Assembly (NCBI GenBank): GCA_964016885.1
Contig: OZ024742.1
Location: 228,532,001-228,596,000 of the forward strand
Reading direction: 5' to 3'
Length of the DNA: 64,000 nucleotides
Origin: Eledone cirrhosa
Lineage: Eukaryota
Below, in pieces: positions 1 through 38,141 of the stretch. The translations under genes were made by a program, and so were the position numbers. A model generated the notes under the pieces. The model ran no database searches and was not told the DNA's origin. It saw only the letters and a list, made by a program, of their open reading frames with translations. Positions within the stretch are counted from its first letter, which is position 1; every line of letters begins with the position of its first letter.

Positions 1-1822
1 GATTTCTGCCATGCACAGTGGCAACATCTGCTCTAGGGTTAAAGTAAACGGCTACCTCTCGGAGCCGTTTCAAATCACCCGGTCCATCAGGCAGGGGTGC
101 CCCCTCTCCTCCCTTCTGTACGTATTGGCTCTCGAGCCACTGCTGCGGAAGTTGGAGTTGCTTTGGGGCATACCCCTGGAACCGGGATTGCACAAAGCGG
201 TCTCGGCCTATGCCGACGACGTAACAGTAATGGTGGCGGACGCCTCGGAAATCGGGGCGATCGCCACCCTACTGGAGGAATACGAAAGGCTGACGGGGGC
301 TAGGCTGAACCGGGACAAGTCAGTCGGTTTGCAACTCGGAACGTGGAGGGGCAAACCGATGCCGTGCGACGGTGTCGTCGGACGGTGGACGGAGGGCCCG
401 GTGAAGGTGCTCGGGGTTTGGTTCGGACCGGACCTCCAGGTGGAGAAGAATTGGGGCGAGGTGACGAGCAGGGTGTTTGCGCTGACCCAGAAGTGGGCCA
501 AGTGCAAACTATCGTTGAAAGGTCGGGCGGAGGTGGCGAACGCTTACATAGCGTCCGTCATCTACTACCGCCTGACCGTCGTGCCTTGCCCTAAGGAAAC
601 GCTCACCATCATGGAGCGCATGCTCTTCCAGTTCCTCTGGAAGAAGCGGCCTCCCATGGTGAGGAGATCCATCTGCTGCCAGCACCCTTCGAAAGGTGGG
701 CTGGGTATGCCGTGGCTGTTGATGCGTAGGCACGCATTGAGGCTACGGCATCTACAGGTATTCCTCACCGGTCAGCCGGTGTGGGCCCCGTTTGTGAGGC
801 GAGCCTTCCCACAGCTCGTCTCGCTCACTGAGCTGCAATCCTGGGTGAAGCAAAGACCGAGAAAACTGGGCAACTAGCACACCGAGTGTGCCCAGGCGCT
901 CACGGCTCTCTGACAAGCGGACCCGACTATCAGTGGAGAATCCACCTCGACATTCTATAGAGGGCTGGTGGCTAGCAGGGGCGACGACACCCTTGGAGAG
1001 TCGCTAGGCATGGAGGAGGACGAACTGGCCAGCCTGTTCGGTAGAACTTTCGACCCGGGACCCATGGACAACTTCCAGAGGTCCCTAGCCTGGCAGTGTT
1101 ACCGGGGGGCTCTGCCCGTTCGAGAAAAGCTCTACAGACACGGGCGCCCGGGCAGGGATCCAGCGAAAAAGATCTGTCCCAGATGCGTGCGCGACGAGGA
1201 AACCGTTGCGCATGCACTGGTACACTGCCCGGGCGTTGCCGATCTGTGGGGCTACGTCGAACGACTGCTGTCGCGTGTGGCGCCGATTCGATTAACCGCC
1301 GAGTCTGTGGTGAACATCAAGCCGCCGCCTCCCTTCAGAAACGAAGCAGAGGCGGTCTTTCTGTGCGTAATAGCCATGATGAAAGAGGTTGTGTGGTGGA
1401 CGCGCCTGAAAGGTCTGAGGTCGGGTGACTTTCTCTCCGGCCATCACCTGGTTTACTTCTTCCGATACCACTTCGGAAGAAGGATCAGGATGGAGAGAGA
1501 AGTGCTTGGCCCCAGACAGTTTTATGAAAGGTGGGTGAAAGAAGCGAGAATGGCTCGTGTAAATGGGCCTTCTCTCTACATTGTTCTGTAGGTGAAGAAG
1601 TGAAGAGGAAAGGGGGAGCGCCTCCTCTCTGGGCTTCCCCCGCGAAAAGGGTTGCACACTTTTCGGGGGTATGTGCAATCCCGAACACGCCCCCTCCCTT
1701 TTGAGGACTTTTTATTATTATATTATTATTGTTATTCCTTTTTCTTTACTCGATTTATGTAAACTCCCCCACTGTGTATTTGTCCCCTTCTTTTGTGCCC
1801 TCGTGGCAAATAAATAGAAATT
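1..1822 (+). mobile_element. Tx1-clade non-LTR retrotransposon copy A (3' part, cut by window edge); pseudogenised ORF2
   Basis: RT motifs IRQGCPLS and YADD, C-terminal CPRC..H...HC zinc knuckle; near-identical to 5729-7550; Trp codons changed to stops at 875-877 (TAG) and 911-913 (TGA); AATAAA then (TATC)n 1823-1851. Confidence 0.93.
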
Positions 1823-2053
1823 TATCTATCTATCTATCTATCTATCTATCTTGATAGAGTAAGACACGCTTCACATCGGCTCCGCTATTCCATCGGGATT
1901 TACCCTTACTATTGTAAGTACCGGATAAATTTTTCAGTGCAACACATTTGGAACACTAACCCCTGTTTTTTAGGGAAACATTTTTGCATTTACCCCCTTT
2001 TTAGGGGGTAAAATAAATATCTATTTTTGCCGAAAAATTTCTTTCTTGGCAGC

Positions 2054-3879
2054 ATGGCGGAAAAGATGGCAGACATGTCTGCCATTAGCTCTGCCACGCC
2101 CCCCAAGTCTGAAGAACAAAAAATAATTACAACAAAATTAGACAATGAAACAAACAAAGAAAATGAAAAAACAAATGTTAAGGAAAATGAGCAAACAGAA
2201 AACAAACAAACAGAAAATAATGCAAATAACAACAGGGCAACTTTCGCACAGAAAACAAAACAATCCATTACATACACACCAATTGACCTAACTGCCGCCA
2301 GAGAAAAACTGGCCGAAGCAAAGAAACACATTGTTTTGGGGGAGAACGGAATGTTTTCCATTAACTCCCCCCCAGAATTCAAGAAAGCCAGAGCAGAAAA
2401 CACAGTTCTCTACAGAACTATACTGAACCAGACGAGAAAGCCAGCACAGCCCAGCCAAATGGAAATAGAGTTAGTCCTAAAAGACTATATGAAGAATATT
2501 CTCTTCATACGAAAGGACCGACTCTATGGCAGCATTTCGGTCCTAACAAGAGACAAGGAAACGGCGGAGAAGCTTTCCTTAAGCCCACTCTCATCGACAA
2601 CATATAGCTTCTATCCCTCCTACATGGGTAGAAGAACACAGAGAGTAAAAGTAAAAACAATGCTGCCCACAATGGACTTCTGGTGGGCTATTGCTGGCTT
2701 CATTGATATGGGCGAAGACACTATGCTGTCAATGGGGAAGGCAACTGGAGATGCGTTCCTGGGAATGGGCCTCGACATACTAGTCCAAATGAGGCCCGAA
2801 AGAATAGCACAAATCCCGGATCGCATCTGGCTGGATGACCTTACCCCAATAGACATAATTGTAGAGGGGAGAAGACCAGCATGCTATTTATGCATGGAAA
2901 GGGGACACGTTAAGGCTAACTGCCCGAAACGTATCCCCCAAAAAGGACTATTGCCCACACCCACCACAAACAGTACACCAACACCACCCACCTCCAAAAA
3001 TACACTAATACCACACACAGCAAACAAAATACAGACACCACCAACCACAAACACAACACAAACATCACCACCACCAGCACCAAACACAAGCACGACACAA
3101 AAACCACCACCACCAACCACAACACAAACACCTCCATCACCAACCACAAGCACGACACAAACATTACCACCACCACCACAAAACCCATTCCAAACAAATA
3201 ATAAAAAAAACAGTAACAAATCTACCCCTCCCGCAAAAAAAAACAACCACACAACACGTCCCTCCCACCTAGCGCTGAAGAGTTCCCCCCAACTTCTGAA
3301 GAAGAAGGAGGAGAAGCCTTCAGACAAGTTAAAAGAAAAAAAAGAAAACACACACCCAGCACACCACAAATAACCCACACACAAACACCAACTCCAATCA
3401 AAAACACCCCACCCTCAACAAACAAAAATAAATCTGCGCCTCCCCTCTCCGAAACATTGACAGCATCACAAAAAAAGACGTTGCAATACACATATATAAA
3501 TAAAGAAAACAAAAAACTGGTTAAATTAATAAACAATAACCCTATGGTGCAGACCGAAGGGCCAAACTTTATCTCAACAGAGAACTTCACCCATTTAAAA
3601 ATGATAAAGGTCCCTCTGGACCTTTATCGTTCCTTAAAAGAACAATTTAGACGGGACGTGAGCCCCCCCTGTTTAAAACCGTTAAATCGCGTCCTCTTGA
3701 AAGATTTCCCCATAACCGCCCCTCTCCCTGACACAACTCCAAATACCCCAACCCCACCACACACGTGTACCCCCACACCACCACAAAACATCCCTCCACC
3801 CAACACACCTGATGCCATGGAAATTACGCAACCCGGAGAGGTAAGTGCTTTTCTTTCTTCACTTTCAACACCAAAATAG
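2054..3879 (+). pseudogene. Tx1 copy B ORF1 (Gag-like nucleic-acid-binding protein) with one frameshift at about 3202-3245
   Basis: ATG at 2054; CYLCMERGHVKANC knuckle; P/T-rich linker; homology to copy E continues in the -1 frame (PHNTSLPPSAEEFPPTSEEEG...YTYIN...NRVLLK) after A8/A9 runs. Confidence 0.85.
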
Positions 3880-6800
3880 ATCAATTGAGAGTTGGCTATT
3901 TGAACGCGCGTGGCCTGGGCTCAGCTTGGAAGCAAGCAAAGCTTCTAAGTGACCTCAGGTCACAAAGTATAGATGTGATGGTTGTTTGCGAGAGTCGGAT
4001 CAGCAGCGTGAGACAGCTGGCGCCCGCCTTCAATGACTTTGAGATGCACGCATCTCTCTGTCAACCCGGAGGCGGGGGGGGGGGGGGAGTTGCCGTACTG
4101 CTGGATAAACGTCTGACTCTCGACGTACAGATTGTTCACTCGGACCCGGGGGGTCGATTACTGGTGCTGGACGTCGAAGGCGGTGAAGGCGGGGCTTTCA
4201 GACTGGTCGGTCTTTATGCTCCCATCGGGGCGGAAAGAGCCGACTTCTTCCAGCGTCTGGAGACTTTTCTGGGAACGTCGCGTTCCCTGCTTTTAGTGGG
4301 GGACTGGAATGGAATCCTAGATGCGCGTTGGGACTATGCAGGGGCATGTCCCGATAGAGGGGGGTGTAGCAGCCTCAAGGGGTTACTCGATCGATTCGAC
4401 CTGGTCGATAGATTTCGACTAGATTGTCCAACTGCGCCAACCTGGACCTGGGCAAACCGCAGTGGACAATCTAGATCGTACCTAGATAGGTTTTTGGTTA
4501 GGAGTAAGGATAGGGACGTATTTAGTTGTCCAGAACTGATCATGGTTGGCTATTCAGATCACAAATTAGTGACCTGCGAGGTCAACCTTGATAGAACGCA
4601 TAGACAGGGTCCCGGTTACTGGAAGATGAACTTGTCCTTACCGACAAAGAAAGATTACAGAAACCGGATTAGTAGCTTAGTTAAGATGCGGTTGACGGGA
4701 GCGATCATCAACAGTAGGTGGTGGATATCTCTAAAGAGAGAGATTAGAGTAAGTTCGATAGGTTACAGTAAGGAACTAGCGGCGAATAGAAATAGGAGGG
4801 AAAGGGAGTTAACAGATAAACTAGAAGAGGCGATTAGGAGCGGAGACGTAGCCAGAGTGTTAGCGACGAGAACGGCATTGAGCCAGTTCTTTGACGCGAA
4901 GCACGAAGGCTGCGTTGTCCGAAGTAAAATACGTGCTTTAGGAAACGAGGGGACCAAAGCTGTTAGCTGGGCCCGCGTGACAGAAGCCAAGAGTGGGATT
5001 AAATCCACCATTCGGTCTTTGCGAGACCAGGATGGACGGGTGATCCTTGAACCTGAGCGAATGTGCGAGACCTTTCAAAGGCACTTTGCTCGACTGTTCG
5101 GAGGTGGCGGGGGGCCGGACGGGGATGTGGACTTCGGTCCATACCTCGACGGTCTACCGCGTCTTTCGAGCGGCGAAGCGGAGTGCTGCGAAAGGCCAAT
5201 CACAGCCACTGAAATCGGGGAAGCGCTCAGCCAATGCAGCAGACGCAAATCCCCGGGTCTCGATGGTCTACCATACGAACTTTATTTAGCTATGCCGGTC
5301 TTGTTCTCCGAACTCCTCGAGGCTGTCTATTGCAACTGGCAACAGAACGGGAGAATTCCCTGTTCTGTGACCAAGGGCGTGGTCACGCTAGTGAGGAAGG
5401 ACGAGAGCAAGGGGGACGACTTAAGTAACTTTAGGCCCATAACTCTGCTGAATGCAGAGTTACAGATTTTGGCCAAGGTGTTGGCGAAGAGGTTGGCGCT
5501 TGTGGTGGGTGGTTTGGTGGGAGACGCGCAGACATGCGCTATCCCGTCCAGGTCCATTCACGACAACCTCCACCTCATGCGATACATCATAGAGAGGGTT
5601 GGCTACGAACCCGGCTTTGGTGGGGCTCTGATCAACTTGGATCAATCTAAGGCGTTCGATAGGGTCGACCATGGTTACCTGGATGCGGTGCTAGCGGCGG
5701 CGGGCTTCGGACCCGTTTTCAGGGGCTGGATTTCTGCCATGCACAGTGTCAACATCTACTCTAGGATTAAAGTAAACGGCTACCTCTCGGAGCCGTTTCA
5801 AATCACCCGATCCATCAGACAGGGGTGCCCCCTCTCCTCCCTTCTGTACGTATTGACTCTCGAGCCACTGCTGCGGAAGTTGGAGTTGCTGCGGGGCATA
5901 CCCCTGGAACCGGGATTGCACAAAGCGGTCTCGGCCTATGCCGAGGACGTAACAGTAATGGTGGCGGACGCCTCGGAAATCGGGGCGATCGCCACCCTAC
6001 TGGAGGAATACGAAAGGCTGACGGGGGCTAAGCTGAACCAGGACAAGTCAGTCGGTTTGCAACTCGGAACGTGGAGGGGCAAACCGATGCCGTTAGACGG
6101 TGTCGTCGGGCGGTGGACGGAGGGCCCGGTGAAGCTGCTCGGGGTCTGGTTCGGACCGGACCTCCAGGTGGAGAAGAATTGGGGCGAGGTGACGAGCAGG
6201 GTGTTTGCGCTGACCCAGAAGTGGGCCAAGTGCAAACTATCACTGAAAGGTCGGGCGGAGGTGACGAACACTTACATAGCGTCCGTCATCTACTACCGCC
6301 TGACCGTCGTGCCTTGCCCCAAGGAAAAGCTCACCATCATGGAACGCATGCTCTTCCAGTTCCTCTGGAAGAAGCGGCCTCCCATGGTGAGGAGATCCAT
6401 CTGCTGCCAGCACCCTTCGAAAGGAGGGCTGGGTATGCCGTGGCTGTTGATGCGTAGGCACGCATTGAGGCTACGGCATCTACAGGTATTCCTCAACGGT
6501 CAGCCGGTGTGGGCCCCGTTTGTGAGGCGAGCCTTCCCACAGCTCGTCTCGCTCACCGAACTGCAATACTGGGTGAAGCAAAGACCGAGAAAACTGGGCA
6601 ACTGGCACACCGAGTGTGCCCAGGCGCTCACGGCTATCTGGCAAGCGGACCCGACTGTCAGTGGAGAATCCACCTCGACATTCTATAGAGGGTTGGTGGC
6701 TAGCAGGAGCGACGACACCCTTGGAGAGTCGCTAGGCATGGAGGAGGACGAACTGGCCAGCCTGTTCGGTAGAACTTTCGGCCCGGGACCCATGGACAAC

Positions 6801-7319
6801 TTCCAGAGGTCCCTAGCCTGGCAGTGTTACCGGGGGGCTCTGCCCGTTCGAGAAAAGCTCTACAGACACGGGCGCCCGGGCAGGGATCCCGCGAAAAAGA
6901 TCTGTCCCAGATGCGTGCGCGACGAGGAAACCGTTGCGCATGCACTGGTACACTGCCCGGGCGTTGCCGATCTGTGGGGCTACGTCGAACGACTGCTGTC
7001 GCGTGTGGCGCCGATTCGATTAACCGCCGAGTCTGTGGTGAACATCAAGCCGCCTCCTCCCTTCAGAAATGAAGCAGAGGCGGTCTTTCTGTGCGTAATA
7101 GCCATGATGAAAGAGGTTGTGTGGTGGACGCGCCTGAAAGGTCTGAGGTCGGGTGACTTTCTCTCCGGCCATCACCTGGTTTACTTCTTCCGATACCACT
7201 TCGGAAGAAGAATCAGGATGGAGAGAGAAGTGCTTGGTCCCAGACAGTTTTATGAAAGGTGGGTGAAAGAAGCGAGAATGGCCCGTGTAAATGGGCCTTC
7301 TCTCTACATTGTTCTGTAG
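3876..7319 (+). CDS. Tx1 copy B ORF2: APE endonuclease, reverse transcriptase, CCHC; uninterrupted but probably inactive
   Basis: APE motifs NARG, CESR, YAP, GDWN, SYLDR, SDH; RT motifs SPGLDGL, FRPITLLN, DQSKAFDRV, QGCPLS; catalytic YADD reads YAED (5937-5948); start codon is ATA where copies C and E have ATG. Confidence 0.93.
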   Translation: MDQLRVGYLNARGLGSAWKQAKLLSDLRSQSIDVMVVCESRISSVRQLAPAFNDFEMHASLCQPGGGGGGGVAVLLDKRLTLDVQIVHSDPGGRLLVLDVEGGEGGAFRLVGLYAPIGAERADFFQRLETFLGTSRSLLLVGDWNGILDARWDYAGACPDRGGCSSLKGLLDRFDLVDRFRLDCPTAPTWTWANRSGQSRSYLDRFLVRSKDRDVFSCPELIMVGYSDHKLVTCEVNLDRTHRQGPGYWKMNLSLPTKKDYRNRISSLVKMRLTGAIINSRWWISLKREIRVSSIGYSKELAANRNRRERELTDKLEEAIRSGDVARVLATRTALSQFFDAKHEGCVVRSKIRALGNEGTKAVSWARVTEAKSGIKSTIRSLRDQDGRVILEPERMCETFQRHFARLFGGGGGPDGDVDFGPYLDGLPRLSSGEAECCERPITATEIGEALSQCSRRKSPGLDGLPYELYLAMPVLFSELLEAVYCNWQQNGRIPCSVTKGVVTLVRKDESKGDDLSNFRPITLLNAELQILAKVLAKRLALVVGGLVGDAQTCAIPSRSIHDNLHLMRYIIERVGYEPGFGGALINLDQSKAFDRVDHGYLDAVLAAAGFGPVFRGWISAMHSVNIYSRIKVNGYLSEPFQITRSIRQGCPLSSLLYVLTLEPLLRKLELLRGIPLEPGLHKAVSAYAEDVTVMVADASEIGAIATLLEEYERLTGAKLNQDKSVGLQLGTWRGKPMPLDGVVGRWTEGPVKLLGVWFGPDLQVEKNWGEVTSRVFALTQKWAKCKLSLKGRAEVTNTYIASVIYYRLTVVPCPKEKLTIMERMLFQFLWKKRPPMVRRSICCQHPSKGGLGMPWLLMRRHALRLRHLQVFLNGQPVWAPFVRRAFPQLVSLTELQYWVKQRPRKLGNWHTECAQALTAIWQADPTVSGESTSTFYRGLVASRSDDTLGESLGMEEDELASLFGRTFGPGPMDNFQRSLAWQCYRGALPVREKLYRHGRPGRDPAKKICPRCVRDEETVAHALVHCPGVADLWGYVERLLSRVAPIRLTAESVVNIKPPPPFRNEAEAVFLCVIAMMKEVVWWTRLKGLRSGDFLSGHHLVYFFRYHFGRRIRMEREVLGPRQFYERWVKEARMARVNGPSLYIVL

Positions 7320-7564
7320 GTGAAGAAGTGAAGAGGAAAGGGGGAGCGCCTCCTCTCTGGGCTTCCCCCGCGAAAAGAGTTGCACACTTTTCGGGGGTAT
7401 GTGCAATCCCCAACACGCCCCCTCCCTTTTGAGGACTTTTTATTGTTATATTATTATTGTTATTCCTTTTTTCTTTACTCGATTTATGTAAACTCCCCCA
7501 CTGTGTAAATGTCCCCTTCTTTTGTGCCCTCGTGGCAAATAAATAGAAATTTATCTATCTATCT

Positions 7565-10500
7565 AGTCTGAGATAGAGGAAGTTGTGTGCCAGTCGCGCT
7601 GGTAAGTTTTTGTCATCTTACTTATAAACAACAAAAAGTATTGTTTTAAAAAATATACCACTATATAGATTGACCCTCCGACTAAATTGTCAGTGGGTGG
7701 GTCATTGAAATTTTCATAAAAATTTACAACAAATTGTTTTAACTATGAATGATAAAATTGAAGCGCTTCCCGCCATAAGTGGAAATGAAAGCGTTGAAAA
7801 CAATGTCACTATGGCAACAGGTAGTGACCGAGATAAATCACACCAAGTATGGAAACACATACGGCACAAAAAAATATTGAATAAGAAAAAACACAACTTC
7901 ACAAATGAACTCCACAACCACAAATCAAGCAATTGAGAACAACAAAAACAACGACAACAATGACAACAACAGCAACCATAAAAAAATCTTTTGCCACAAT
8001 AAGCAAAGGAACTTTTACAAATATTGATATTTCCAATGCAAAGGAAATGATCAATGAAGGAAAAAAATATATTACCTTCGAGGAAAAAGGGGGATTTAAA
8101 ATAACCTCTCTGCCACAAGTCAAAGCCGAAACTATGCGAAGGACTGTGATTTTTCGCACGATTTTGAATAAACAAAAAAAAACCGGCTTTCCTTACTCAA
8201 GGCGAAATTTAAATCGTCTTGAAAGAGGCAATGCCGGAAATACAATACATACAAAGGGCTAAACTGTATGGAAGCATTTCGGTGCTCTTCAAAAGTGAGG
8301 CCCTTGCGAAAAAATACTCAGTGACCCCGGTCACCTCTGCCACACACACCTTTTTCCCTACATACATGGGAAAAAGAACACAAAGAATAAACATTACCAA
8401 TATACCACCCAACATTAACATCTGGTGGATTCTGGCAGGGTTCTTGGAGGAAGATGAAGACACAAAACTGTCGATTCAAAAATCCACAAGAAACACCTGG
8501 AACGGCACAAGCCTGGAAATTTTGGTCCAAATGAAACCGGACAGAATTTCCAAGATACCAGAAAGGGTGCCAGTAGACAATACCAATTACATTCACATTT
8601 CGGCAGATGGGAGGAAGCGACATTGTTTTAAATGCGCGAGCACATCGCATTTAAAGGCCTCCTGTCCCCTCTTACGAACAAACACCACCACCCCCACAAA
8701 AGTACTTTTACCAACACCAACTCCAAAACCACCACAACAACAACAACAACACACAAAGCAAGCAAACTCACGAAAACAAACAACTGTTAACCCACAAACA
8801 ACAGAAAAAACACAAACAATTCCCCTGAAAAACACTGTCCCACCCCATCCCACTCCATCCAACACTACCACAATCACACACACAAACACACCATCACCAC
8901 ACAACATACCCCTCCCACACGCCCCTGATGACGATTCATCACCAGACGAGGCTACTTCTCCATCCCCAAGTGAAGATGAAGGAGAGCCTCGTAAATAAAA
9001 AACACAAAAAAAAGAGACACAACAAAGCCACAAAAACAACAATCACCAACACAAACACACAACCACCAATACAAATAACAACACAAACACCACCATAATC
9101 TAACCCCCCCCCCCCATCAGAAAAACAAACACCAACACTACCCCAAACACAAATGCCCACCATAAAAAGAAAACTACAAAATGAACAACAAACCAAAACA
9201 ACACAACAAAAAAAACAAACAACAATACACATACATTAACACAAACAAAAACCTAATGGAGGTCATCTCCCAAAACCCCAAAGTAGAAACTGAGGGGAAA
9301 ACTTTTGTAAAAGCAAACTCTCAACCACACCTAAAACTGATAAGGGTTTCGATAGAGACCTATCAGACATTGAAAGAAAAGTTTTCACAGGACGTTGGCA
9401 ACCCCTGCCAAAAACCAATAAACCGTGTCCTGTTGAAATGTTTGCCATCCCACTCAACACCCCCACCAGAACTGAAATGGAGATTGAACAACCCGATCTC
9501 CAGGAAATGAAAAGGTAAGTGCAACTTTACGTCCTTTTTGCCAACCCTTCTCCACCAACATGGCTGACTTACGAGTTGGAAGCGCGAATGTGCGTGGCCT
9601 AGGGATGCCCTGGAAACAGGGCCAACTTTTAAACGACCTTAGGTCACACGGTATAGATGTAATAGCCATCACCGAGTCCAGGATCCACAACAGGCAGCAA
9701 CTAACCCCCATCTTCAATGTCTTTGAGATCTACGCATCTCTCTGTCAGCCGGGAGGTGGAGGGGGAGTGACTATCATGTTTCGGAAAAACCTGGATCTCG
9801 AAGTACAGCAAGTACACTTGGACCCGGAAGGTAGACTGGTAGTCCTAGACGTAAACAGTATTGGAGGTGGAGCCTTCAGACTGGTGGCCGTTTATGCCCC
9901 GACCGGACAATCACAATCGCGGCCAGACTTCTTTAAGCGCCTGGAGTCTTTTCTGGGAACGTCTCGCTCCTTGCTTTTAGTGGGGGACTGGAATAGTATC
10001 CTAGATGCACGATGGGACTATGTGGGAGCATGTCCCATTAGAGCGAGGTGCAACAGCCTCAAAAATCTATTCGGCCAATTCCAACTGGCCGATAGATATC
10101 GACTAGATTTCCAAACTGCACCACAGTGGACATGGGCAAATCGCAGCGGGACATCTAGATCGTATCTATATAGGTTTTTCATTAGAGAAAAGGACAAGAA
10201 GATGTTAAGCTATCAACAAATGCACATGGTTGCCTATTCAGATCACAAACTAGTCGTCTGCATAGTCAACCGTGATAGAATACATAGACAAGGACCTGGA
10301 TACTGGAAGCTGAACGTGTCGTTGCCGGCACGAAAAGCTTACAGTGAACGGATAAGTAGATTAGTTAAGCAAGAGTTAACGGGTGCCATCGTCAACAATA
10401 GATGGTGGTACTCTCTCAAGAGAGCAATTAGAGTAGAATCGATAGGGTTTAACAGAGAATTAGCTTTAGAGAAAAACAAATCAGAAACAGAACTAGTAGC

Positions 10501-12543
10501 CAAAGTAGAAGAGGCGCTTAGGAGTGGCAACGCAGCTTGAGTGCTAGCATCGAGAACGGCACTGAACCAGTTCTTCGACGCGAAACACGAAGGCTGCGTG
10601 GTCAGAAGTAAATCACGTGCTCTAGGAAACAAGGGAGCCAAAGCTGTTAGCTGGGCCCGAGTGGCGGAAGAGAAAAGTGGCAACAAGTCCACGATTCGGT
10701 CTTTGAAAGACCAAAACGGACGCGTGATACTTGACCCCAGGCAGATGTGCGCGGCCTTTCAGTGGCACTTTGCGCGACTGTTTGAGCAGAACGACGGTGC
10801 ACCGAACGAGGCAATGGACTTTGGTTCATACCTCGACAGCCTGCCGCGTCTCTCGAGCATGGACACCGAGTTCTGCGAAAGACCGATCACAGCCACTGGG
10901 CCGCTGCGGGAAACGCAAATCACCCGGTCTAGATGGTCTACCCTATGAGTTTCGGCTGGTTTCGGTCCCATTTTCAGAGGCTGGATCAAGGCGATGCACA
11001 CCAGCATCTGCTCGAAGGTCAAGGTGAACGGCTACCTATCAGAGCCGTTCGCAATCACGCGTTCTATTCGACAGGTATGCCCTCTCTCCTCCATTCTGTA
11101 CGTATTGACACTAGAGCCACTACTGCGGAAGTTGGAGGTTTTGCAAGGCATCCCTTTAGAACCGGGACTGCGAAAAGCGGCGTCGGCTTATGGTGTCGAA
11201 AACCTCGGAAATCGAGGTAATCGGCAACCTACTACAGGAATACGACAGGTTAACAGGAGCAAATCTGAACCCGGACAAGTCTGTCGGTTTGCAACTCGGA
11301 ACGTGGAGAGGCAAACCGATGCCGTCCGACAGCGTCGTCGGACGCTGGACGGAAGGACCGGTGAAATTGCTCGGGGTCTGATTCGGTCCAAACCTCCAGG
11401 TGGAGAAAAACTGGAACGAGGTCATGGCCAAGGTATTTGCGCTCACCCAGACGTGGGCAGAGTGCAAACTGTCTTTGAAAGGTCGAGCGGAGGTGGCGAA
11501 CACTTTCATAGCGTCCGTCATCTACTACCGCTTGACTGTCGTGCCTTGTCACCGTGAATACCTCACCAGAATGGAACGCATGCTCTTCCAGTTCCTGTGG
11601 AAGAAGCAGGATCCACTGGTGAGGAGATCCGTCTGCTGTCAACACCCTTCCAACGGAGGGCTGGGCATGCCGTGGCTAATGATGCGCAAACATGCGCTGA
11701 GGCTACGGCATCTTCAGGTATTCCCCACTGACCAACCGGTGTGGGCACCGTTTGTGAGACAGGCCTTCCCACAACTTGTCTCGCTGACGGAGCTGCAGTC
11801 CTGGGTCAAGCGAAGACCGAAGAAGATGGGCGCCTGGCACATTGAATGCGCCCAGGCGCTCAGAGTCCTCTGTCAAGTGGGCGCAGCAATCAGTGGAGAC
11901 TCCACTTCGACATTCTATAGAGGGTTAGTACTTTACAAGTGCGACGACGTGCTCGGGGAGACTCTAGGCGTCGAAGACGACGAGCTCACCAGTCTGTTCG
12001 GTAGGACTTTCCGCCCGGGACCTATGGACAACTCCCAGAGGTCCCTGGCCTGGCAGTGTTATCGAGGAGCTCTACCCATTCGAGATAAGATCTACAGGCA
12101 CGGACGCCCCGGCAGGGATCCTTCCAAGAGGACGTGTCCAAGATGCGAGCAGGACATTGAAACCGTCTTGCACGCAATTGTACACTGCCCGGGCGTAAAC
12201 GACCTGTGGAACTATGCAGAACAACTGCATGTGTGAATGCAAGGTGGGTGAATGAAGCGAAAATGGCCCGAGTGATTGGGCCTTCTCTGTTTATAAGCCT
12301 GTAGGTTAAAGAAGAGAGCAAAAGGAAGAAGGGAGCACTTGCACAACACGCTCCTGAAGTTGAGGGTTGTTCTATCGACGGGGTATTAAACAACCCATTT
12401 GTGGCGTCTCCCCCCTATTGGGGATTTCGATTGTTATAATTGTTTGTTTTATATTTTTTTTTACACGACTGTATGTAAAATCCCCGGCATGTGTCTTTGT
12501 ATTGTCCTCTTTTCTTGTGCGCCCTTGTGGAAAATAAAAAAAA
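7565..12543 (+). mobile_element. Tx1-clade copy C, divergent family, full-length but decayed (frameshifts, stops, internal deletions)
   Basis: ORF1 fragments 7745-9518 (CFKCASTSHLKASC), ORF2 from ATG 9560 (APE motifs), deletions in RT near 10945 and near 12235; (TATC)n tail 12544-12608. Confidence 0.92.
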
Positions 12544-12638: not shown

Positions 12639-15505
12639 TTTCTGGGAACGTCCCGCTCCCTGCTGTTATTGGGGGACTGGAATGGAATCCTAGATGCACG
12701 TTGGGATTATGTGGGAGCATGTCCCGATAGAGGCGGGTGTAACAGTCTCAAACAGTTAATCGGCCGATTTCAACTGGCCGATACATATCGACTAGATTTT
12801 CCAACTGTGCCACTGTGGACGTGGACCAACCACAGCGGAACATCTAGATCGTACCTAGATAGGTTTCTAGTTTGAGTTAGTGATAGGGACATGTTAAGCT
12901 GTCCACAAATGTTCATAGTTGCCTATTCAGATCACAAACTAGTAACCTGCTTAGTCAACCTTGACAGAACCCATAGACAGGGACCCGGCTACTGGGAGGT
13001 GAACTTGCGTTACCGACATGCAAAGCCTACAGTAGACGGATTAGCACTTTAGTTAAGAAGCACTTTATGGGGGCCATTGTCAACAACAGATGGTGGTACT
13101 CTCTCAAGAGAGCAGTTAGATTAGACTCGATAGGTTTTAGTAAAGAATTAGTGTTAGATAGAAATAAGACCGAAAAGGAACTGGTAGATAAAGTAGAAGA
13201 GGCACTTAGGAGTGGCAACGTAGCCAGCGTACTAGCGACGAGAACGGCCTTGGACCAGTTCTTCGACGCAAAGCATGAAGGCTGCGTTGTCAGAAGCAAA
13301 ATACGTGCTCTGGGAAACGAGGGAGCCAAAGTTGTTAGCTGGGACCGAGTGACGGAGGCGAAAGATGGCAACAAGTCCACGATTCAGTCTTTGAAGGACC
13401 AAGACGGACGCGTGATACGTGAGCCGAAGCAGATGTGCGCGGCCTTTCAGAGGCACTTAGCTCAACGGCGCTGAGCCAATGCGGCAAATGGAAATCTCCA
13501 GGTCTTGACGGTCTACACTAAGAATTTTACGTAGCAATGCCGGACTTATTGGCCGGTCTCCTGGAAGCGGTCTACTGGCAGCAGAACGGGAGAATTCCCA
13601 GTTCTGTGACCAAGGGCATAGTCACGTTAGTCAGGAAGGACGAGAATAAGGGGGATGACATAGGCAACTTCCGACCCATAACTCTGCTAAACACAGAGTC
13701 ACAGATTTTGGCCAAAGTGTTAGCAAAGAGGCTGGCGCTTGTCGTCAAAAACGTGGTGGGAGAAGCGCAGACATGAGCAATCCCGACCAGGTCCATACAC
13801 GACAACCTCCACCTCATACAATACATCATAGAGAGGGTAGGGTGTAAACCCGGCTTCGGTGAGGCCCTGATCAACTTGGATCAGTCTAAGGCTTTCGATA
13901 GGGTTGACCATCGTTACATGGATGCGGTTCTCGAGGCGGCAGGCTACGGACACGTATTCAGAGGCTGGATTGCTGCAATGTACAGCAGTGACATCTGCTC
14001 AAGGGTCAAGGTGAACGGCTACCTCTCGGAGCCGTTCCATATCATTCGATCCATCCGACAGGGATACCCTCTCTCCTCATTCTGTACGTACTGACTCTCG
14101 AGCCACTACTGCGGAAGTTGGTGCTATTGCAGGGCATCCCTTTGGAAGCGGGACTGCGAAAAGCGGAGTCGGCCTACGCCGACGACGTGACAATAATGGT
14201 GTCAAGCACCTCGCAAATCGGGGAGGTCGGCATCTTACTGAAGGAATACGAAAGGTTCACAGGAGCGAAGCTGAACCGGGACAAATCCGTCGGTTTGTAG
14301 CTAGGAACGTGGAGAGGCAAACCGATGCCTTCCGATGGCGTCGTCGGACGCTGGACGGAAGGATCGGTAAAGCTGCTCGGGGTCTGGTTTGGTCCGGACC
14401 TCCAGGTGGAGAAAAACTGGATCGAGGTGACGGCCAAGGTGTTTGCGCTCACCCAGAAGTGGGCCGAGTGCAAACTATCCTTGAAAGGTCGAGCGGAGGT
14501 GGCGAACACTTTTATAGCGTCCGTCATCTACTACTGCTTGACCGTCGTGCCTCACAGTGATCTGGCAAACGGACCCGGCGATCAGTGGAGACTCCACTTC
14601 GTCATTCTATAGAGGGTTGGTCCACAGCAATTGCGACGACGCGCTAGGAGAAACTCTAGGCGTAGAATAGTACGAACTGGTCAGTCTGTTCGGTAGGACC
14701 TTCCGCCCGGGACCGATGGACAACTTCCAAAAGTCCCTGGCCTGGCAGTGCTACCAAGGAGCTCTACCAGTTCGAGACAAGCTCTACAGACACGGGCGCC
14801 CGGGAAGGGACCCTTCGAAAAAGATCTGTCCGAGATGCGTGCGCGACGAGGAAACCGTCGCGCACGCATTTGTATACTGCCCGAGCGTTACCGACCTGTG
14901 GGACTATGTAGAACGACTTTTGTCGCGGGTGGGACCAATCCAGTTGACCACCGAGTCCATTGTCATGATCAAACCGCCACCCCCTTCAAAAACGAGGGAG
15001 AGGCGGTTTTCCTATGTGTTATGGCTATGGTGAAAGAGGTTATATGGTGGTCGAGGTTAAAAGGGTTGAGTTCAGACACCTTTCTCTCCGGCGAAAAACT
15101 GATTCGTTTTTTAAAATATCATTTTGGAAGAAGAATCGGGATGGAGAGAGAGGTGCTGTACCCCAACAGATTTGATAAAAGGTGGGTGAATGTGGAAAAG
15201 ATGGCCCGAGTGGTTGGGCCTTCTCTCTATATAAGCCTATAGGTTGAGGAAAAAGAGGAAGAGAGGAAGGGAGTACTCACTCTTGGTGTTCCTGGAGATG
15301 AGGGTTGTACATTTTTTCGGGGTGTGTAACGCCTGTGTAACGCCTCCCCTGTGTAACGCCTCCCCTGTGTAACGCCTCCCCCCTATTGTGGATTTCAATT
15401 GTTATTTGTTATTTTATTAATAGTTTTATTTTCATATACCTGTATGTAAACTCCCCATTTGTATTCGTCCCCTACTTTTGTGCCCTTGTGGCTAATAAAG
15501 AAATT
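12639..15505 (+). mobile_element. Tx1-clade copy D, 5'-truncated within APE domain, decayed
   Basis: Starts at FLGTSRSLLL directly after a TATC/TGTC tract; RT motifs incl. YADD; ends GPSLYISL* at 15242, then 3'UTR, AATAAA, (TCAA)n(TCTA)n tail 15507-15605. Confidence 0.92.
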
Positions 15506-15605: not shown

Positions 15606-18600
15606 AGACGTGTGTCACTTCGCGGAGAAGTTTCCGTTAATTTATGTAAGAAAAAAATGTGAGTTTTTAGTTAAATTTTATATCATTGTGTAACTTGACC
15701 ACCCGTCTGGACCTTCAGGTGGTGGGTCAACTCATTTTCGCCCCTACAGGGGCGGAATATCCATTTAAAAAAATTTTTCTCCATCGAATCTTTGAAAAAA
15801 TATTGTAAAATTTTGATTACGTTATGAACGCTGCGTCCAACGATAATGGTCGTGGAGAGGCGGTAAGACTACAAAGCTCGCAGTCAACAACGTCTTCTTC
15901 ACTAGATACTATAGAGATGGAAAGACAAAATGAAAATAAAAAAACGAATTCATATCCAAACAACACAAATGACACCAAACAGTTCAATGACAACAAAAAT
16001 AACAGCAAAACCAATAATGATGATAAAAGCAACAATGATAACAACAACAAAGAAAAAAATAAAGACAACGCCAATAACACCAGCATCAAAGACAACAACA
16101 ACACCAAGGAAAATACGGATGATACCAACATCGGTGACAACAAGAATAACAACAACAATAACAACAATAATGACAACACCACCAATACGGATTCCACAAA
16201 GAAACCAAAATCTCCTTTGCAGAGAAAGTTCAAAAAAAGGAGGAATTGATATATCTCGACATAACAAATGCTGAACAACTTTTAAAGGACGCTAGGAGAT
16301 ATGTCACTTTCGAAAAAAATGGTGATTTCAGCATCAATTCTCCGGTAGAAATTCGCAAGGAAACTGCTCTCAAAACGATAGTTTTTAGGACAGTTTCCAA
16401 TTCTACCCGAAAACCAGTCCAATTGTCACAGAAAGAAATTGAACTGGTTTTCAAAAATTCAATGAATGATATTGCATTCATTCAAAGAAGCAAACTTTTT
16501 GGGAGTATTTCGGTACTCATGAAGGATCAATTGACGGCCCAAAATTACTCTGTGTCGCCAATTGTATCCAACCTGTACACCTTTTTCCCTACATACATGA
16601 GAAAAAGGACACAAAAGATCAGAATCACAAGTGTCACACCAAAGGTGAACATATGGTGGATACTGTGCGGCTTCATCAATTTTGATGAAGACAGAATACT
16701 GTCAGTAGGAAAGTCCCCCAGAGATGTATTCAATGGGACTAGCATTGAAGTTCTGGTGCAAATGAGCCCAGAGCGAATAGCTATGATCCCACAGCGTGTA
16801 CTCCTGGACGGACTCACCTACATAAACCTTTCGGTTGAGGGTAGGCGGCCTTCATGTTACCATTGCTTTAGCAGGGGTCACCTGAGGGCTTCCTGTCCTA
16901 AAATAATGAACCAAAAAAAGGTTCTTCTGCCGACACCCATCAAAACAACACAACCACCAACATCACCACCACAACAACAACACCAACATAAAAAAATAAC
17001 CACAACAAACACAGTCCCACCCAACCCCACTCCACCTAAAACCACTGCAAAATCACATACAGACACAACAGCTCCCCAAGACATACCCCTTCCCAATCAC
17101 ACAGACGATACAACAGATGAGGCTATCTCGCCATCACCCAGTGAAGACGAGGGAGAACCCCATCGCTCGAAAAGAAAGACAAGACATCACAAAAGCAAAA
17201 AACCAGCAAACACTACCACAAACATACAACCACCAACACAAACAACAAAAATATCACAAACAAAACCCCCACCTCCTGAAAACAAAATACCTACAACAAA
17301 ACGAAAGCACACACAAGAACTACAGACAAAAACAAACACAACACAAGAAAATTACACTTACACTTACATAAACACTGAAAACAAAACACTAATGGAGACC
17401 ATCACGAACGACCCTTCGGTTTTCACCGAAGGGAAAACTTTCGCCCACATTATTAAAAATAGCAAAAAACTGAACCTAAAACTGATTAGGGTCCCTATAC
17501 AAACTTATAGGTCCCTAAAAGAAACATTTGAGAAGGATGTGGGGAATTCCTGCGTGAAACCACTCAACCGCGTCCTTCTCAAATGCCTCCCCACCCCAGA
17601 CACCCCCATCCCACCAGACCCCACCCCACCAAACATCTGCATCCTCACCCCGCCGGAAACCACCACCCATCCAGACAACCCCTCCAACACCCCCATGGAA
17701 ATCGTGCGGCCTGGTCCCCAGGAGGCGAAGGGTGAGTGATCTCTTTTCCTCTTTTAACTTTTCAGCACCAACATGGCCAATATAAGAGTTGGATGTGTGA
17801 ACGTACGCGGCCTGGGGATGCCCTGGAAACAGGGCAAACTCTTAAACGACCTCAGGTCGCACAGTATGGATGTGGTAGCCATTTGCGAGTCCAGGATCCA
17901 CGGCGAGCGACAGCTGGCCCCCATCTTCGATGACTTTGAGATCTACGCATCTCCCTGTCAACCGGGGTGGAGGGGTGGGGGCGGAGTTGCCGTTTTGCTG
18001 CGGAAACACCTGGGCCTCGTAACACAGACAGTACATCTGGACCCGGAGGGTCGACTGGTGGTCCTAGACGTTGACAGTAGTGAAGGTGGAGCCTTCAGGC
18101 TGGTGGCCGCATATGCCCCATCCGGGACACCGCGGCCAGACTTCTTCAAACGTCTAGAGACTTTTCTGGGAACGTCGCGCTCCTTGCTTTTAGTGGGGGA
18201 CTGGAATGGAATCCTAGATGCACGTTGGGACTATGTGGGAGCATGTCCCGATAAAGGGTGGTGTAACAGCCTCAAACAGTTAATCGACCGATTTGACCTG
18301 GCCGATAGATATCGACTAGATTTTCCGACTGCGCCACTGTGGACGTGGAGTAATCGTAGCGGAACATCTAGATCGTACCTAGATAGGGTTCTAGTTAGAA
18401 ATAAGGATAGGGACATGTTAAGCTGTCCACAAATATTCATGGTTGCCTATTCAGATCACAAACTAGTGACCTGCATGGCCAACCTTGATAGAACCCATAG
18501 ACAAGGACCCGGCTACTGGAAGCTGAACTTGTCGTTACCGACAAGCAAAGCATACAGTAGACGGATTAGCACTTTAGTTAAACAGCACTTGACAGGGGCG

Positions 18601-20362
18601 ATTGTCAACAACAGATGGTGGTACTCTCTCAAGAGGGCAGTTAGATTAGACTCGATAGTTTTTAGTAAAGAATTAGCGTTAGATAGAAATAGAACCGAGA
18701 AGGAACTGGTAGATAAAGTAGAAGAAGCAATTAGAAGTGGCAACGTAGCCAGCGTGCTAGCAACGAGAACGGCCTTGGACCAGTTCTTCGACGCAAAGCA
18801 CGAGGGCTGCGTTGTCAGAAGCAAAATACGTGCTCTGGGAAACGAGGGAGCCAAAGCTGTTAGCTGGGCCCGGGTGACGGAGGCAAAAAGTGGCAACAAG
18901 TCCATGATTCGGTCTTTGAAGGACCAAAACGGACGCGTGATACGTGAGCCGAAGCAGATGTGTGCGGCTTTTCAGCGGCACTTTGCTCGGCTGTTCGGGG
19001 GGAGCGGCGCGCCGGGAGAAGCTATGGATTTCAGTCCATACCTCGACGGCCTACCGCGACTCTCGGACAGCGGGGCAGAGTTCTGCGAAAAGCCGATTTC
19101 AGCCACTGAGATAGGGGACGCGCTGAGCCAATGCGGCAAACGCAAATCTCCAGGTCTCGACGGTCTACCCTACGAATTTTACGTAGCAATGCCGGACTTA
19201 TGTTCCGGTCTCCTGGAAGCGGTCTACTGCAACTGGCAACAGAACGGGAGAATTCCCCCCAGTTCTGTAACCGGGGGCGTGGTCACACTAATCAGGAAGG
19301 ACGAGAATAAGGGGATGACATAGGCAACTTCTGGCCCATAACTCTGCTAAAGACAGAGTTACAGATTTTGGCCAAGGTGTTGGCAAAGAGGCTGGCGCTT
19401 GTCGTCGAGAACCTGCTGGGAGAAGCGCAGACATGCGCAATTCCGACCAGGTCCATACACGACAACCTCCACCTCATGCGATACATCATAGAGAGGGTAG
19501 GGTGTAAACCCGGCTTCGATGGGGCCCTGATCAACTTGGATCAGTCTAAGGCTTTCGATAGGGTTGACCATCGTTACCTGGATGCGGTGCTCGAGGCGGC
19601 AGGCTTCGGACCCGTGTTCAGGGGCTGGATTGCTGCAATGCACAACAGCAACATCTGCTCAAGGGTCAAGGTGAACGGCTACCTCTCGGAAAAAAGATCT
19701 GTCCGAGGTGCGTGCGAGACGAAGAAACCGTCGCGCACGCATTCATACACTGCCCGGGCGTCACTGACCTGTGGGGCTATGTAGAACGACTATTGTCGCG
19801 TGTGGGACCAATCCAGTTGACCACCGAGTCCATTGTCATGATCAAACAGCCACCCTCCTTCAAAAACGAAGGAGAGGCGGTTTTCCTTTGTGTGATAGCT
19901 ATGGCGAAAGAGGTTGTATGGTGGACAAGGTTGAAAGGGCTGAGGTCAGACACCTTTCTCTCCGGCCAACAACTGATTCTTTTTTTCAAATATCACTTTG
20001 GAAGAAGAATCAGGATGGAGAGAGAGGTGCTGTACCCCAGCAAGTTTTATGAAAGGTGGGTGAAAGTGGCGAGAATGGCCCGAGTGAATGGGCCTTCTCT
20101 CTATATCAGCCTGTAGGTTGAGGAAAAGAAGGAGGAGAGGAAGGGAGTACAAACTCTTCGTACTCCTGGAGATGAGGGTTGCACATTTTTTTTCGGGGGT
20201 ATGTGTTACCCATATAAACTGTCTCCCTCTATTGGGGAAAATCGACTAACTTTTTAAATTCCATTTGTGATAACATTTTACACGTTTTTATTGTATGTAA
20301 ACTTCCTCCTTTGTATTTGTCCCCTTCTTTTGTGCCCCTGTGGCTAATAAAGAAATATATCT
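15606..20362 (+). mobile_element. Tx1-clade copy E, third family, full-length with about 1.1 kb internal deletion in RT at about 19690
   Basis: ORF1 15824-17739 (one frameshift near 16200; CYHCFSRGHLRASC), ORF2 from ATG 17773; junction ctctcgga/aaaaagatct joins mid-RT to the zinc knuckle; ends AATAAA...tatcta. Confidence 0.93.
16246..17739 (+). CDS. Tx1 copy E ORF1, main open segment (RRM-like region, CCHC knuckle, P/T linker, conserved C-terminal domain)
   Basis: 497-aa open frame homologous to ORF1 of copies B and C. RRM-like assignment is inferred from Tx1/L1 ORF1 architecture. Confidence 0.85.
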   Translation: MIYLDITNAEQLLKDARRYVTFEKNGDFSINSPVEIRKETALKTIVFRTVSNSTRKPVQLSQKEIELVFKNSMNDIAFIQRSKLFGSISVLMKDQLTAQNYSVSPIVSNLYTFFPTYMRKRTQKIRITSVTPKVNIWWILCGFINFDEDRILSVGKSPRDVFNGTSIEVLVQMSPERIAMIPQRVLLDGLTYINLSVEGRRPSCYHCFSRGHLRASCPKIMNQKKVLLPTPIKTTQPPTSPPQQQHQHKKITTTNTVPPNPTPPKTTAKSHTDTTAPQDIPLPNHTDDTTDEAISPSPSEDEGEPHRSKRKTRHHKSKKPANTTTNIQPPTQTTKISQTKPPPPENKIPTTKRKHTQELQTKTNTTQENYTYTYINTENKTLMETITNDPSVFTEGKTFAHIIKNSKKLNLKLIRVPIQTYRSLKETFEKDVGNSCVKPLNRVLLKCLPTPDTPIPPDPTPPNICILTPPETTTHPDNPSNTPMEIVRPGPQEAKGE

Positions 20363-26293: not shown

Positions 26294-27405
26294 TCATTGG
26301 TATTATTATATCTAATGGTATTTCCCCTGTTGTTGTGTGGTCTTGTATAGAAGTTTCGGACGTATTGAGGTTCGGTTTGTTGATAGTCCGGGTTGTAGAT
26401 TTGGTTCCTTTGTGTGGGTTGGGATCTATGGTTTTGGAACAGGCTCTGTGTGGGCAGGGGTCTACGGTTTTGGAATAGGTTTTGTGTGGGTTGTGATCTG
26501 CGGATCAGATCCTGCCTTGTGTTCGGGGATCTTTGGTTTTTGTTAGTAGGGTTATAGTTTTGTCTATGGTTTCTGGGATTATCGTTATAGTTTTGCTGGG
26601 GGTATGTTGGACGTTTTGTTACTTTTTTTGTTATTTGTTGTGCATGTGGTGTGTGAGTTTTAGTTTGTTTTAAAAATGGGTTACCTGTATGTTGTTCATT
26701 TTTGAAGTCCATTTCGTAGTTGTTGAACCAGGTGGCGTTTTTTTCCCATCGCTGGAGGGATGTGAGTTCTTCATCCTCACAGTTTTCTTTCCAAAGTTTT
26801 AGGTTTTTTTTGTAGAGTAGGCCTTCAGAGTGCTTTGAGATTTCTGTGTCCATCTGTTGGTCGAGTGACTTGAATTTTTCTTCGTTGGAGTTGGCTCTTA
26901 ATCGCAACAGTTCTATTTCTGTTTTAAATTTTTCCAATGCCATCTTTTCCCTAAGTCTTTGTTGGTTTTCTGGTTCATTCGGGATGGGTTTTATTTTGAG
27001 TTTTTTGGGGAGGATGATTGGGGTAGAGTTTAGCCACTTTTCATATATGTCTGCCTTGCCATTATTTTTTAGGAGATTCCAAAGGGCGAATTTGCGGGCT
27101 GTGAGCTTTTGAGTCCATATGTTGATTAGGGTGTTTTTCACTGAGTGGACATCTCGTAGATTGGGTTCTAACGGTTGTTCAAGCTTTTGGAGCATTGCTG
27201 TTTCAATGGTTTCGATTAGCTTAGTTAATACTGGAGTAATATTCGTCTCTTGGGTATTTTCTGTTTCTTCGTGGGGTCCTTTTTTATAGATGTGTATTTG
27301 GTCCACTTTGTTGGTCAAAATTGAGAGTTTAGAGGAAATCTCTTTGAGTTCATTTAAGATGTCCTGGTTCAGTGAGTTGTTGTTTTGTTGAGACTTTGGT
27401 GGCAT
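26203..27405 (-). CDS. Penelope element upstream ORF1 (400 aa; coiled-coil-like N-terminal half, Q/N/R-rich tail)
   Basis: Uninterrupted ATG-started ORF inside the terminal repeats, overlapping ORF2; heptad-like L/I spacing; 12-aa repeats RSQPTQNLFQN. Confidence 0.8.
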   Translation of the reverse strand: MPPKSQQNNNSLNQDILNELKEISSKLSILTNKVDQIHIYKKGPHEETENTQETNITPVLTKLIETIETAMLQKLEQPLEPNLRDVHSVKNTLINIWTQKLTARKFALWNLLKNNGKADIYEKWLNSTPIILPKKLKIKPIPNEPENQQRLREKMALEKFKTEIELLRLRANSNEEKFKSLDQQMDTEISKHSEGLLYKKNLKLWKENCEDEELTSLQRWEKNATWFNNYEMDFKNEQHTGNPFLKQTKTHTPHAQQITKKVTKRPTYPQQNYNDNPRNHRQNYNPTNKNQRSPNTRQDLIRRSQPTQNLFQNRRPLPTQSLFQNHRSQPTQRNQIYNPDYQQTEPQYVRNFYTRPHNNRGNTIRYNNTNEKTFQKNHFLDQGYRTHDTRWHKPILKNRK

Positions 27406-27657
27406 TTTCGGTCTTCGTGTGGTGGATATATATTAGAAAGTGAAGTTTTTTTTACAAAATGAAAAATAACCGAGGTGTCCTACACGAGTGGAAGTATAAA
27501 GAAAAAGAGATGAAATCGAAAATGCAACTGAAGTCTTATTTTTAAAAAAAATATATATATTTATTTGGTTCCTTTACCGGTTTCGCAGTAATCTCTCTCT
27601 CTCTCTCTATATATATTTGTATACACACACACATACATATATATACATATATATATA

Positions 27658-31929: not shown

Positions 31930-32014
31930 GTATGTATGTATGTATGTATGTATGTATGTATGTATGTATGTATGTATGTATGTATGTATGTATGTATGTA
32001 TGTATGTGTGTATG

Positions 32015-32126
32015 TTCCGGTTTTATAATTTTACACATTTTTACCAATAGAGAGTGAGTCGGTTTCTAACATAGATACACGACTCTTTCATTGGAATTTA
32101 GACATCATCAACTAGGTAGATATGTC

Positions 32127-38104: not shown

Positions 38105-38141
<37 letters not shown>
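37171..38141 (+). mobile_element. Tx1-clade copy F (family of copy E), 5'-truncated, with (TATC)n tail
   Basis: ORF2 C-terminus and 3'UTR nearly identical to 19700-20360; tail 38106-38141. Confidence 0.92.

Follow-up and report, generated by a model that had tools for sequence, protein, structure and literature searches.

Introduction

LINEs (long interspersed nuclear elements) need far more of the protein of their first open reading frame (ORF1p) than of the second (ORF2p), and the excess is thought to come from poor reinitiation on the unspliced bicistronic RNA. Elements with ORF1 only are known as HAL1 (half-L1), and splicing is known from Drosophila copia. Here, we analyze 64,000 nucleotides (nt) of Eledone cirrhosa DNA (assembly GCA_964016885.1, contig OZ024742.1, positions 228,532,001 to 228,596,000, forward strand; hereafter the window). 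Its positions 1-20,370 hold five nested LINE copies, A to E, between TATC microsatellites. The element is an L1/Tx1-type LINE, as judged by the endonuclease (APE), reverse transcriptase (RT) and zinc domains of ORF2 and an upstream ORF1 with a nucleic-acid-binding motif. Comparison between families gives good support for selection on a 5' splice site at the ORF1 end; this site may mainly serve to bind U1 on RNA that stays mostly unspliced.

A comparable arrangement is described for Arabidopsis EVADE (EVD) and the shGAG RNA of plant Ty1-copia elements, in which a conserved 5' splice site also stands at the end of the structural gene (PMC5580714; the articles cited by PMC number were available in part, and statements on them refer to those parts). 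In EVD, U1 both starts splicing and blocks premature termination, and the donor is better conserved than the acceptor (PMC5580714). EVD is a long terminal repeat (LTR) element with one gag-pol frame, a short intron spanning the protease, early polyadenylation and splicing shown on RNA (PMC5580714), whereas the present element is a two-ORF LINE with a candidate intron of 3.5 kb, known from DNA. The major splice donor of foamy virus is similar if the U1 reading given below holds, as U1 suppresses polyadenylation there independently of splicing. Foamy virus, however, has an LTR with a defined poly(A) site just downstream, and no such conserved site was found here (PMC3694450).

Human L1 has kept a rarely used donor, G98U99, for tens of millions of years, known together with its spliced integrated retrotransposed elements (SpIREs), and this donor resembles the promoter-proximal site described below. 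It differs in lying in the 5' untranslated region (UTR), in having spliced genomic copies (~2% of full-length insertions) and in being explained by RUNX3, whereas no spliced copy was found here (PMC5860796). Splicing of human L1 is described as harmful, and the available parts of that article describe no donor at the ORF1 end (PMC5860796). The available part of a review on non-LTR protein biogenesis lists no splicing route (PMC3894237). L1-Tx1 families are listed as recently active in Octopus vulgaris, and the available part of that report does not mention splicing (PMC13282606). We found no report of an ORF1-end donor or of ORF1-only spliced RNA in Tx1-like LINEs in the open-access literature (Repbase, subscription journals and supplements are outside this scope).

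Results and discussion

The 5' splice site at the ORF1 end

An initial annotation, made by a model from the letters of the window, had placed consensus donors at 3841 (B), 9515 (C) and 17732 (E), and all three coordinates proved correct. The family letters A-E are taken from it; all further letters are labels coined in this analysis.

3838..3846, plus strand: ORF1-end 5' splice site of B, GAG/GTAAGT, phase 0 (joint at 3841)
3848..3866, plus strand: C/T-rich tract directly after the B donor
9512..9520, plus strand: ORF1-end donor of C, AAG/GTAAGT (family mostly phase 2)
17729..17737, plus strand: ORF1-end donor of E, AGG/GTGAGT, phase 1

Sixteen families were represented by a single copy each; for tree counts, the recombinant P, which has the 3' end of K, was set aside, which leaves 15. 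A consensus 5' splice site lies 24-47 nt upstream of the ORF2 start in 15/15 families, and the tract after the donor is 76-92% C/T in the 16 representatives. A search with an ORF2 motif, free of any assumption on the spacer, gave G/GTRRG upstream in 28 of 30 loci, 27 with T at +6; these loci are the first listed on one contig and not a random draw. The two loci lacking the donor are single changed copies of donor-bearing families. As background, 54,487 nt of ORF2 contain 23 G/GTRRGT, which equals 1.7% per 40 nt. All of the 30 best B loci have an unchanged donor in phase 0; in E, it is unchanged in 30 loci and in phase 1 in 29.

Donor phase is 0 in B, 1 in E, M, N and N2, and 2 in C, D, F, G, H, J and K. 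Because all three phases of ORF1 occur, neither a codon nor the ORF1 stop explains the donor. It is also kept behind ORF1 ends that fail to align between K/N and the other families. Its variants (GTAAGT, GTAGGT and GTGAGT) stay within the splice consensus; family R, outside the 15, has CAG/GTAATT.

Contrary to the initial annotation, which had called the spacers between ORF1 and ORF2 unalignable, close families align and have the donor, the C/T tract and a C-AC-CAA-type context in common by descent. Such alignment would be expected from neutral inheritance, in which related families simply keep their letters, and the acceptor side discussed below is consistent with neutral descent. Fourfold sites, however, differ by 0.07-0.50 between families, and only 17/129 are unchanged over the 15. 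At that rate, the chance that donor positions +1, +2, +5 and +6 all stay unchanged, as observed, is ~3e-4, and positions flanking the donor change 4-7 times over the same families. As the donor was located by that same pattern, the real test is its presence within a 50-nt window in 15/15 families against the ORF2 background. The motif also recurs at ~40% protein identity. We consider neutral inheritance very improbable overall: it is largely refuted for the donor and still stands for the TAG/G at the ORF2 end. These comparisons give good support to selection of the ORF1-end motif, far beyond chance, as a 5' splice site, whose spread is wider than the initial annotation could see.

Alternatively, the motif and its C/T tract could act in translation (termination-reinitiation), in RNA structure or as protein-binding DNA, with the donor a likeness only. 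The site lies between the ORF1 stop and the ORF2 start, overlapping the stop in phase-2 families, and ORF2 of B begins at ATA. The mode of ORF2 translation initiation is still open in the field (PMC3894237), and in human L1 a RUNX3 site overlaps the 5'UTR donor (PMC5860796). Nevertheless, the motif is kept in three phases and at 24-47 nt from the start (13 nt in a relative), its variation tracks the splice consensus, and it is seen again near 5' ends that are unrelated and, in relatives, also after ORF2. Furthermore, a fold of the ORF2 end shows no covarying structure across the stop (covariation term -0.32 kcal/mol). Such a role is hence improbable, though less so than neutral inheritance.

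Relatives from other host DNA

Protein comparison yielded relatives at 37-41% identity. Their DNA lies in an Arenicella metagenome-assembled genome (MAG) as tandem arrays of head-to-tail units of ~6.4 kb, which are most likely mis-binned animal host DNA, and the MAG appears to contain eukaryotic repeats as contamination. One relative family (L351, ~40% identity) has AAG/GTAAGT directly after the ORF1 stop in 55/55 counts (overlapping loci), 13 nt from the ORF2 start, and a second donor ~14 nt after the ORF2 stop in 52/52 counts. A second family (L345) lacks the ORF1-end donor and has a 3'UTR donor with acceptor-like tracts downstream. The 27 loci at 25-31% identity with sequence before ORF2 show few donor-like sites and no fixed place for them. 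Because these more distant relatives mostly lack the donor, it belongs to a sub-lineage. A complete-looking 3'UTR intron (donor, ~250 nt, tract, TAG) is retained in the copies seen (L351:7480-7740 and L345:3548-3900).

The ORF2 end as a candidate acceptor

The initial annotation proposed that ORF2 is a spliceosomal intron whose acceptor is the ORF2 stop, TAG/G. The sites it gave (1591, 7319, 12304, 15242 and 20116) are present with a purine run after each, as is the competing AG 7 nt upstream in C, D and E, which it had raised as a caveat.

1586..1592, plus strand: ORF2 end CTGTAG/G of copy A (family B; the window lacks its 5' part)
7296..7320, plus strand: candidate acceptor of copy B, pyrimidine run coding PSLYIVL, then TAG/G
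12299..12305, plus strand: ORF2 end CTGTAG/G of copy C
15237..15243, plus strand: ORF2 end CTATAG/G of copy D (truncated at its 5' end; the family is in phase 2, with mismatched phase)
20111..20117, plus strand: ORF2 end CTGTAG/G of copy E, then a phase-1 stop

Among 113 distinct ends, YTRTAG closes ORF2 in 18 of the 20 end clusters, mostly followed by G. As a general conserved acceptor, TAG/G carries less weight than the donor: it is not universal and is conserved no better than silent sites. The TAG changes once on the tree, and 16/34 twofold sites change as little; the +1 G changes twice, and 75/129 fourfold sites change as little. Family K, which provides 20 of the first 100 ORF2 starts listed, has TAA/A in 15/15 distinct ends, together with a perfect donor and four intact ORF2s. 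Loss of TAG/G in intact family members had been named in advance as telling against the intron, and its loss in the abundant K does so in part. Family N ends in TAG/T after a weak tract (59% C/T), with no distal acceptor in 4/4. The C-terminal peptide of ORF2 is not conserved in distant relatives.

Other arrangements were considered and rejected. Five better or equal acceptor-like columns lie inside ORF2, and they arise from coding alone; as they fall mostly at protein-constrained codon positions, a conserved internal acceptor was discarded. No B donor joined to any exon whose third base is not A was found in the genome by exact-match search. A mini-intron in the spacer fusing ORF1 to ORF2 would be out of frame in B and E and has no AG in C. 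A pyrimidine-purine hairpin across the ORF2 stop is absent from the consensus fold.

The proposed joint and its reading frame

7329..7331, plus strand: TGA closing ORF1 three codons past the 3840/7320 joint of B

The translations that had been proposed for the joints of B (...GE/VKK, then stop; phase 0) and E (...K G, then stop; phase 1) are correct. That for C (G, then stop) applies only to frameshifted copies such as the one in the window and fails for the family, which is in phase 2 in 23/28 counts (overlapping loci included), with the ORF1 stop inside the donor. In a phase-2 C, the joint would append ~28 residues, and the window copy is a frameshifted exception. The first stop past the joint lies within three codons in the donor's phase in B (phase 0), in H, J, G and F (phase 2) and in E, M, N and N2 (phase 1). 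The phases do not match in C, D, R, F2, F3 and F4. This coupling of donor phase and downstream stop is the best point for splicing and is suggestive only.

Search for spliced products in the genome and in reads

All searches for genomic retrocopies were exact-match searches of the 3.0 Gb genome. No precisely joined copy of B was found, compared with 379 unspliced ORF1-end donors and 653 unspliced ORF2 ends of that family, and the four B matches with a changed acceptor are point mutants. Precisely joined copies of E, C or K were likewise not found. A pattern for joined copies of seven crown families gave two matches, both in unrelated DNA, against eight for the control and 4,485 unspliced donors. 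Thus, the check proposed in the initial annotation, for copies lacking exactly GT..AG, revealed none in the families searched (B, C, E, K and the seven crown families). Retrotransposition of the proposed spliced RNA would give a HAL1-like element in the genome, and no such copy was found here.

Four sequencing runs of one study (X1-X4), none recorded as RNA, were available as contigs only and were compared with 1852-12540 (copies B and C). The 3840/7320 joint does not occur among the matches listed for these runs, beside which there are 342 further ones. X4 has individual contigs that run unspliced across the donor (3715-4061) and across the ORF2 stop (6951-7560). They show the unspliced form; as rare forms are lost from contigs, spliced RNA may exist beside it.

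We suspect that X4, with 88 million letters, is RNA. Its B variants match those of the intact sub-variant L097 at 12/12 listed sites. The summed contig depth of X4 is higher over ORF1 of B than at the start of ORF2, the reverse of X1-X3. At 3765-3770, still upstream of the donor, the depth has already fallen to a low 34.7. Contig depth is unsuited to ranking the parts of a gene, and this pattern was not used as evidence. If X4 is RNA, the fall over 1852-3700 could hint at early termination in ORF1.

Promoter-proximal donor-like sites

1911..1919, plus strand: donor-like site of B, ATT/GTAAGT, ~62 nt from the 5' end
7599..7607, plus strand: donor-like site of C, CTG/GTAAGT
15656..15664, plus strand: donor-like site of E, GTGAGT, with a second, GTAAGA, at 15646

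By inspection, a GTRAG or GTAGGT site lies ~28-100 nt from the 5' end in 13 of the 14 families whose 5' end was located; N has none. The 5'UTRs bearing these sites are often unrelated and contain no consistent acceptor. No 5'UTR-spliced copy of B was found in the genome, although such RNA would still encode ORF2. Four E matches have a changed 5'UTR acceptor, with no spliced copy among them: three are point mutants, and one starts at the site behind unrelated DNA. Such an E copy, L397, starts exactly at the candidate 5'UTR acceptor behind unrelated DNA, either by chance truncation or as the retrocopy of a splice to a host exon. E and H have a branch-like motif, a tract and a YAG ~93 nt downstream of the 5' site, around a hairpin. 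Further loci with a promoter-proximal site are L227, L228, L229, L235, L238, L239, L241, L243 and L247.

Proposed U1 binding on mostly unspliced RNA

We favor the reading that the ORF1-end donor is mainly a U1-binding site on mostly unspliced RNA, and we give it an even chance. The U1 small nuclear ribonucleoprotein (snRNP) would bind the ORF1-end 5' splice site. Once bound, it would shield the long intronless transcript from premature cleavage or termination, or otherwise aid expression, as U1 suppresses premature termination in EVD (PMC5580714) and polyadenylation, independently of splicing, in foamy virus (PMC3694450). ORF2 would be translated from the unspliced bicistronic RNA by reinitiation at a Kozak-like start 24-47 nt downstream. 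Some ORF1-only RNA may be spliced as a minor form, as a single site fulfils both functions in EVD. U1 binding with little splicing fits the data because the donors outlast any fixed acceptor and occur at two places in the element, and because no spliced copies were found. The human L1 5'UTR donor is likewise conserved and rarely spliced, and its mutation leaves 5-fold less RNA, which the authors ascribe to RUNX3 (PMC5860796). The initial annotation had mentioned a U1 site as a caveat; we find that it fits at least as well as the intron, while U1 binding itself is something we infer. Protection of the HUSH type was discarded, as it is reported to be independent of a 5' splice site and would leave the conserved donor unexplained (PMC8770142).

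In the alternative reading, ORF2 is a spliceosomal intron that part of the RNA retains. The other part would be spliced from the donor to the ORF2 stop (in K, to a distal CAG in the 3'UTR), yielding an ORF1-only mRNA that raises ORF1p over ORF2p, and only the unspliced RNA would retrotranspose. We hold this to be possible, though less likely than U1 binding as the main role, and both readings can be true. The donor at the ORF1 stop in every family, the YTRTAG at the ORF2 end in 18/20 clusters and the Ty1/copia precedent (PMC5580714) agree with it. On the other hand, no family searched has a joined genomic copy, the AG 7 nt upstream of the site comes and goes, relative family L345 lacks the ORF1-end donor, and the X4 contigs show the unspliced form across both sites with no joint among the matches listed. 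Of the original intron proposal, the selected donor stands, whereas the missing spliced genomic copies and the loss of TAG/G in K count against it.

Several observations weigh against U1 binding as the main role, and most of them suit an intron. A phase-matched stop occurs in 9/15 families versus 4.7-5.3 expected (P 0.01-0.02 if families are independent), a count that leaves out K and P, which have no TAG, and Q, takes R's pairing from one internally deleted copy, and is reduced by shared ancestry to ~3-4 independent contrasts, with the six mismatched families on the other side. The donor lies within a few codons of the ORF1 stop, as would suit a real exon end. K has a CAG after a U-rich tract 73 nt before the poly(A) signal in 14/14. 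Because this distal CAG is common to R, which keeps TAG, it predates the TAG loss of K; however, distal YAGs after U-rich tracts also occur in clusters keeping TAG, and K's CAG may be a chance occurrence. In relative family L351, with its ORF1-end donor, a non-coding pyrimidine-tract TAG acceptor follows the second donor in the 3'UTR by ~240-260 nt in 48/52. The missing genomic copies are only moderate evidence, as an RNA without ORF2 would be a poor substrate under cis-preference; the counterpoint is that spliced RNA would keep the whole 3'UTR and would need abundance to matter. Finally, ORF2 downstream of the donor has 0-2 AATAAA/ATTAAA per family, and most of these hexamers are found before it, in the A-rich ORF1, which leaves little for U1 to protect on the downstream side, where it usually acts. 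A poly(A) hexamer is found 100-400 nt upstream of ORF2 in 13/15 families, as expected from A-rich coding.

If taken in full, the intron would make this a LINE lineage, present in this genome and at least one distant host, with the whole of ORF2 as a retained intron. Its ORF1-only mRNA would have a normal 3' end, donor phase and stop would co-evolve 3.5 kb apart, and the acceptor would turn over between the ORF2 stop and the 3'UTR. We put this forward tentatively, as a minority view. A selected donor between the ORFs would mean that the lineage recruits the first step of the spliceosome. If the RNA is spliced, this would be a novel means by which a LINE adjusts the ratio of its proteins, a retrovirus-like strategy of subgenomic RNA; if it is unspliced, the lineage would be a clear natural example of U1 sites that help a LINE to produce a long RNA without introns. 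Thousands of strong donors in the clade could also affect host transcripts.

Element copies and neighboring features

1852..7552, plus strand: LINE copy B, full length, young family, flanked by (TATC)n
2054..3879, plus strand: ORF1 of B, with CCHC knuckle; frameshifted in the window copy
3876..7319, plus strand: ORF2 of B (APE endonuclease, RT, zf-RVT), starting at ATA, not ATG
7538..7543, plus strand: AATAAA poly(A) signal at the element 3' end of B

In a Pfam scan, ORF2 contains PF03372 (APE endonuclease), PF00078 (RT) and PF13966 (zf-RVT, below its curated cut-off). Its best PDB match is LINE-1 ORF2p (E 4e-50), and the closest named protein is from Argonauta hians (61% identity). ORF1 spans ~613 open codons in many B copies and has a visible CCHC knuckle but no Pfam match. 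The Tx1 label of these LINEs is provisional and comes from the initial annotation; the protein comparisons made, which had no named Tx1 references or reference tree, gave no Tx1-named match. Features in common with the Tx1 clade are two ORFs, a CCHC knuckle in ORF1, an APE-RT-zf ORF2 and, possibly, insertion into microsatellites. On their flanks the copies have (TATC)n or (ATT)n, which may be tail or target, and they are nested in arrays; crown families end in (TATC)n and the K/N/M families in (ATT)n. No small-RNA gene target was matched in Rfam. With a degenerate motif inside ORF2, at least 13,083 ORF2 starts were counted in this genome.

The window copy of B is damaged, as ORF1 is frameshifted and the RT motif reads YAED. 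In 26/26 B starts, ORF2 begins without ATG at an ATA overlapping the ORF1 stop (3876-3879). Family B is young and has many intact ORF2s despite this start, pointing to a non-AUG or reinitiation start. The 3'UTRs (window 7340-7545 and homologous ends) have two hairpins in common, with some compensatory changes, as well as a U-rich stretch and TGTA motifs, and the AATAAA immediately precedes the microsatellite. A supposed B2 subfamily turned out to be family H. Recombination is seen in P, which has an M-like 5' half and the 3' end of K (L242), and in K1 and K2, which have a common ORF2 but unrelated 5'UTRs (L227 vs L247).

A sixth copy of the clade, 5'-truncated and with a small deletion at the ORF2 end, lies at 37169-38113. 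Three further elements on the minus strand were recognized by eye:

23966-27432, minus strand: Penelope-like element with an upstream ORF followed by an RT whose C-terminus is GIY-YIG-like
31166-32065, minus strand: LINE with restriction-like endonuclease, C-terminal fragment
55445-57219, minus strand: hAT-like transposase, broken

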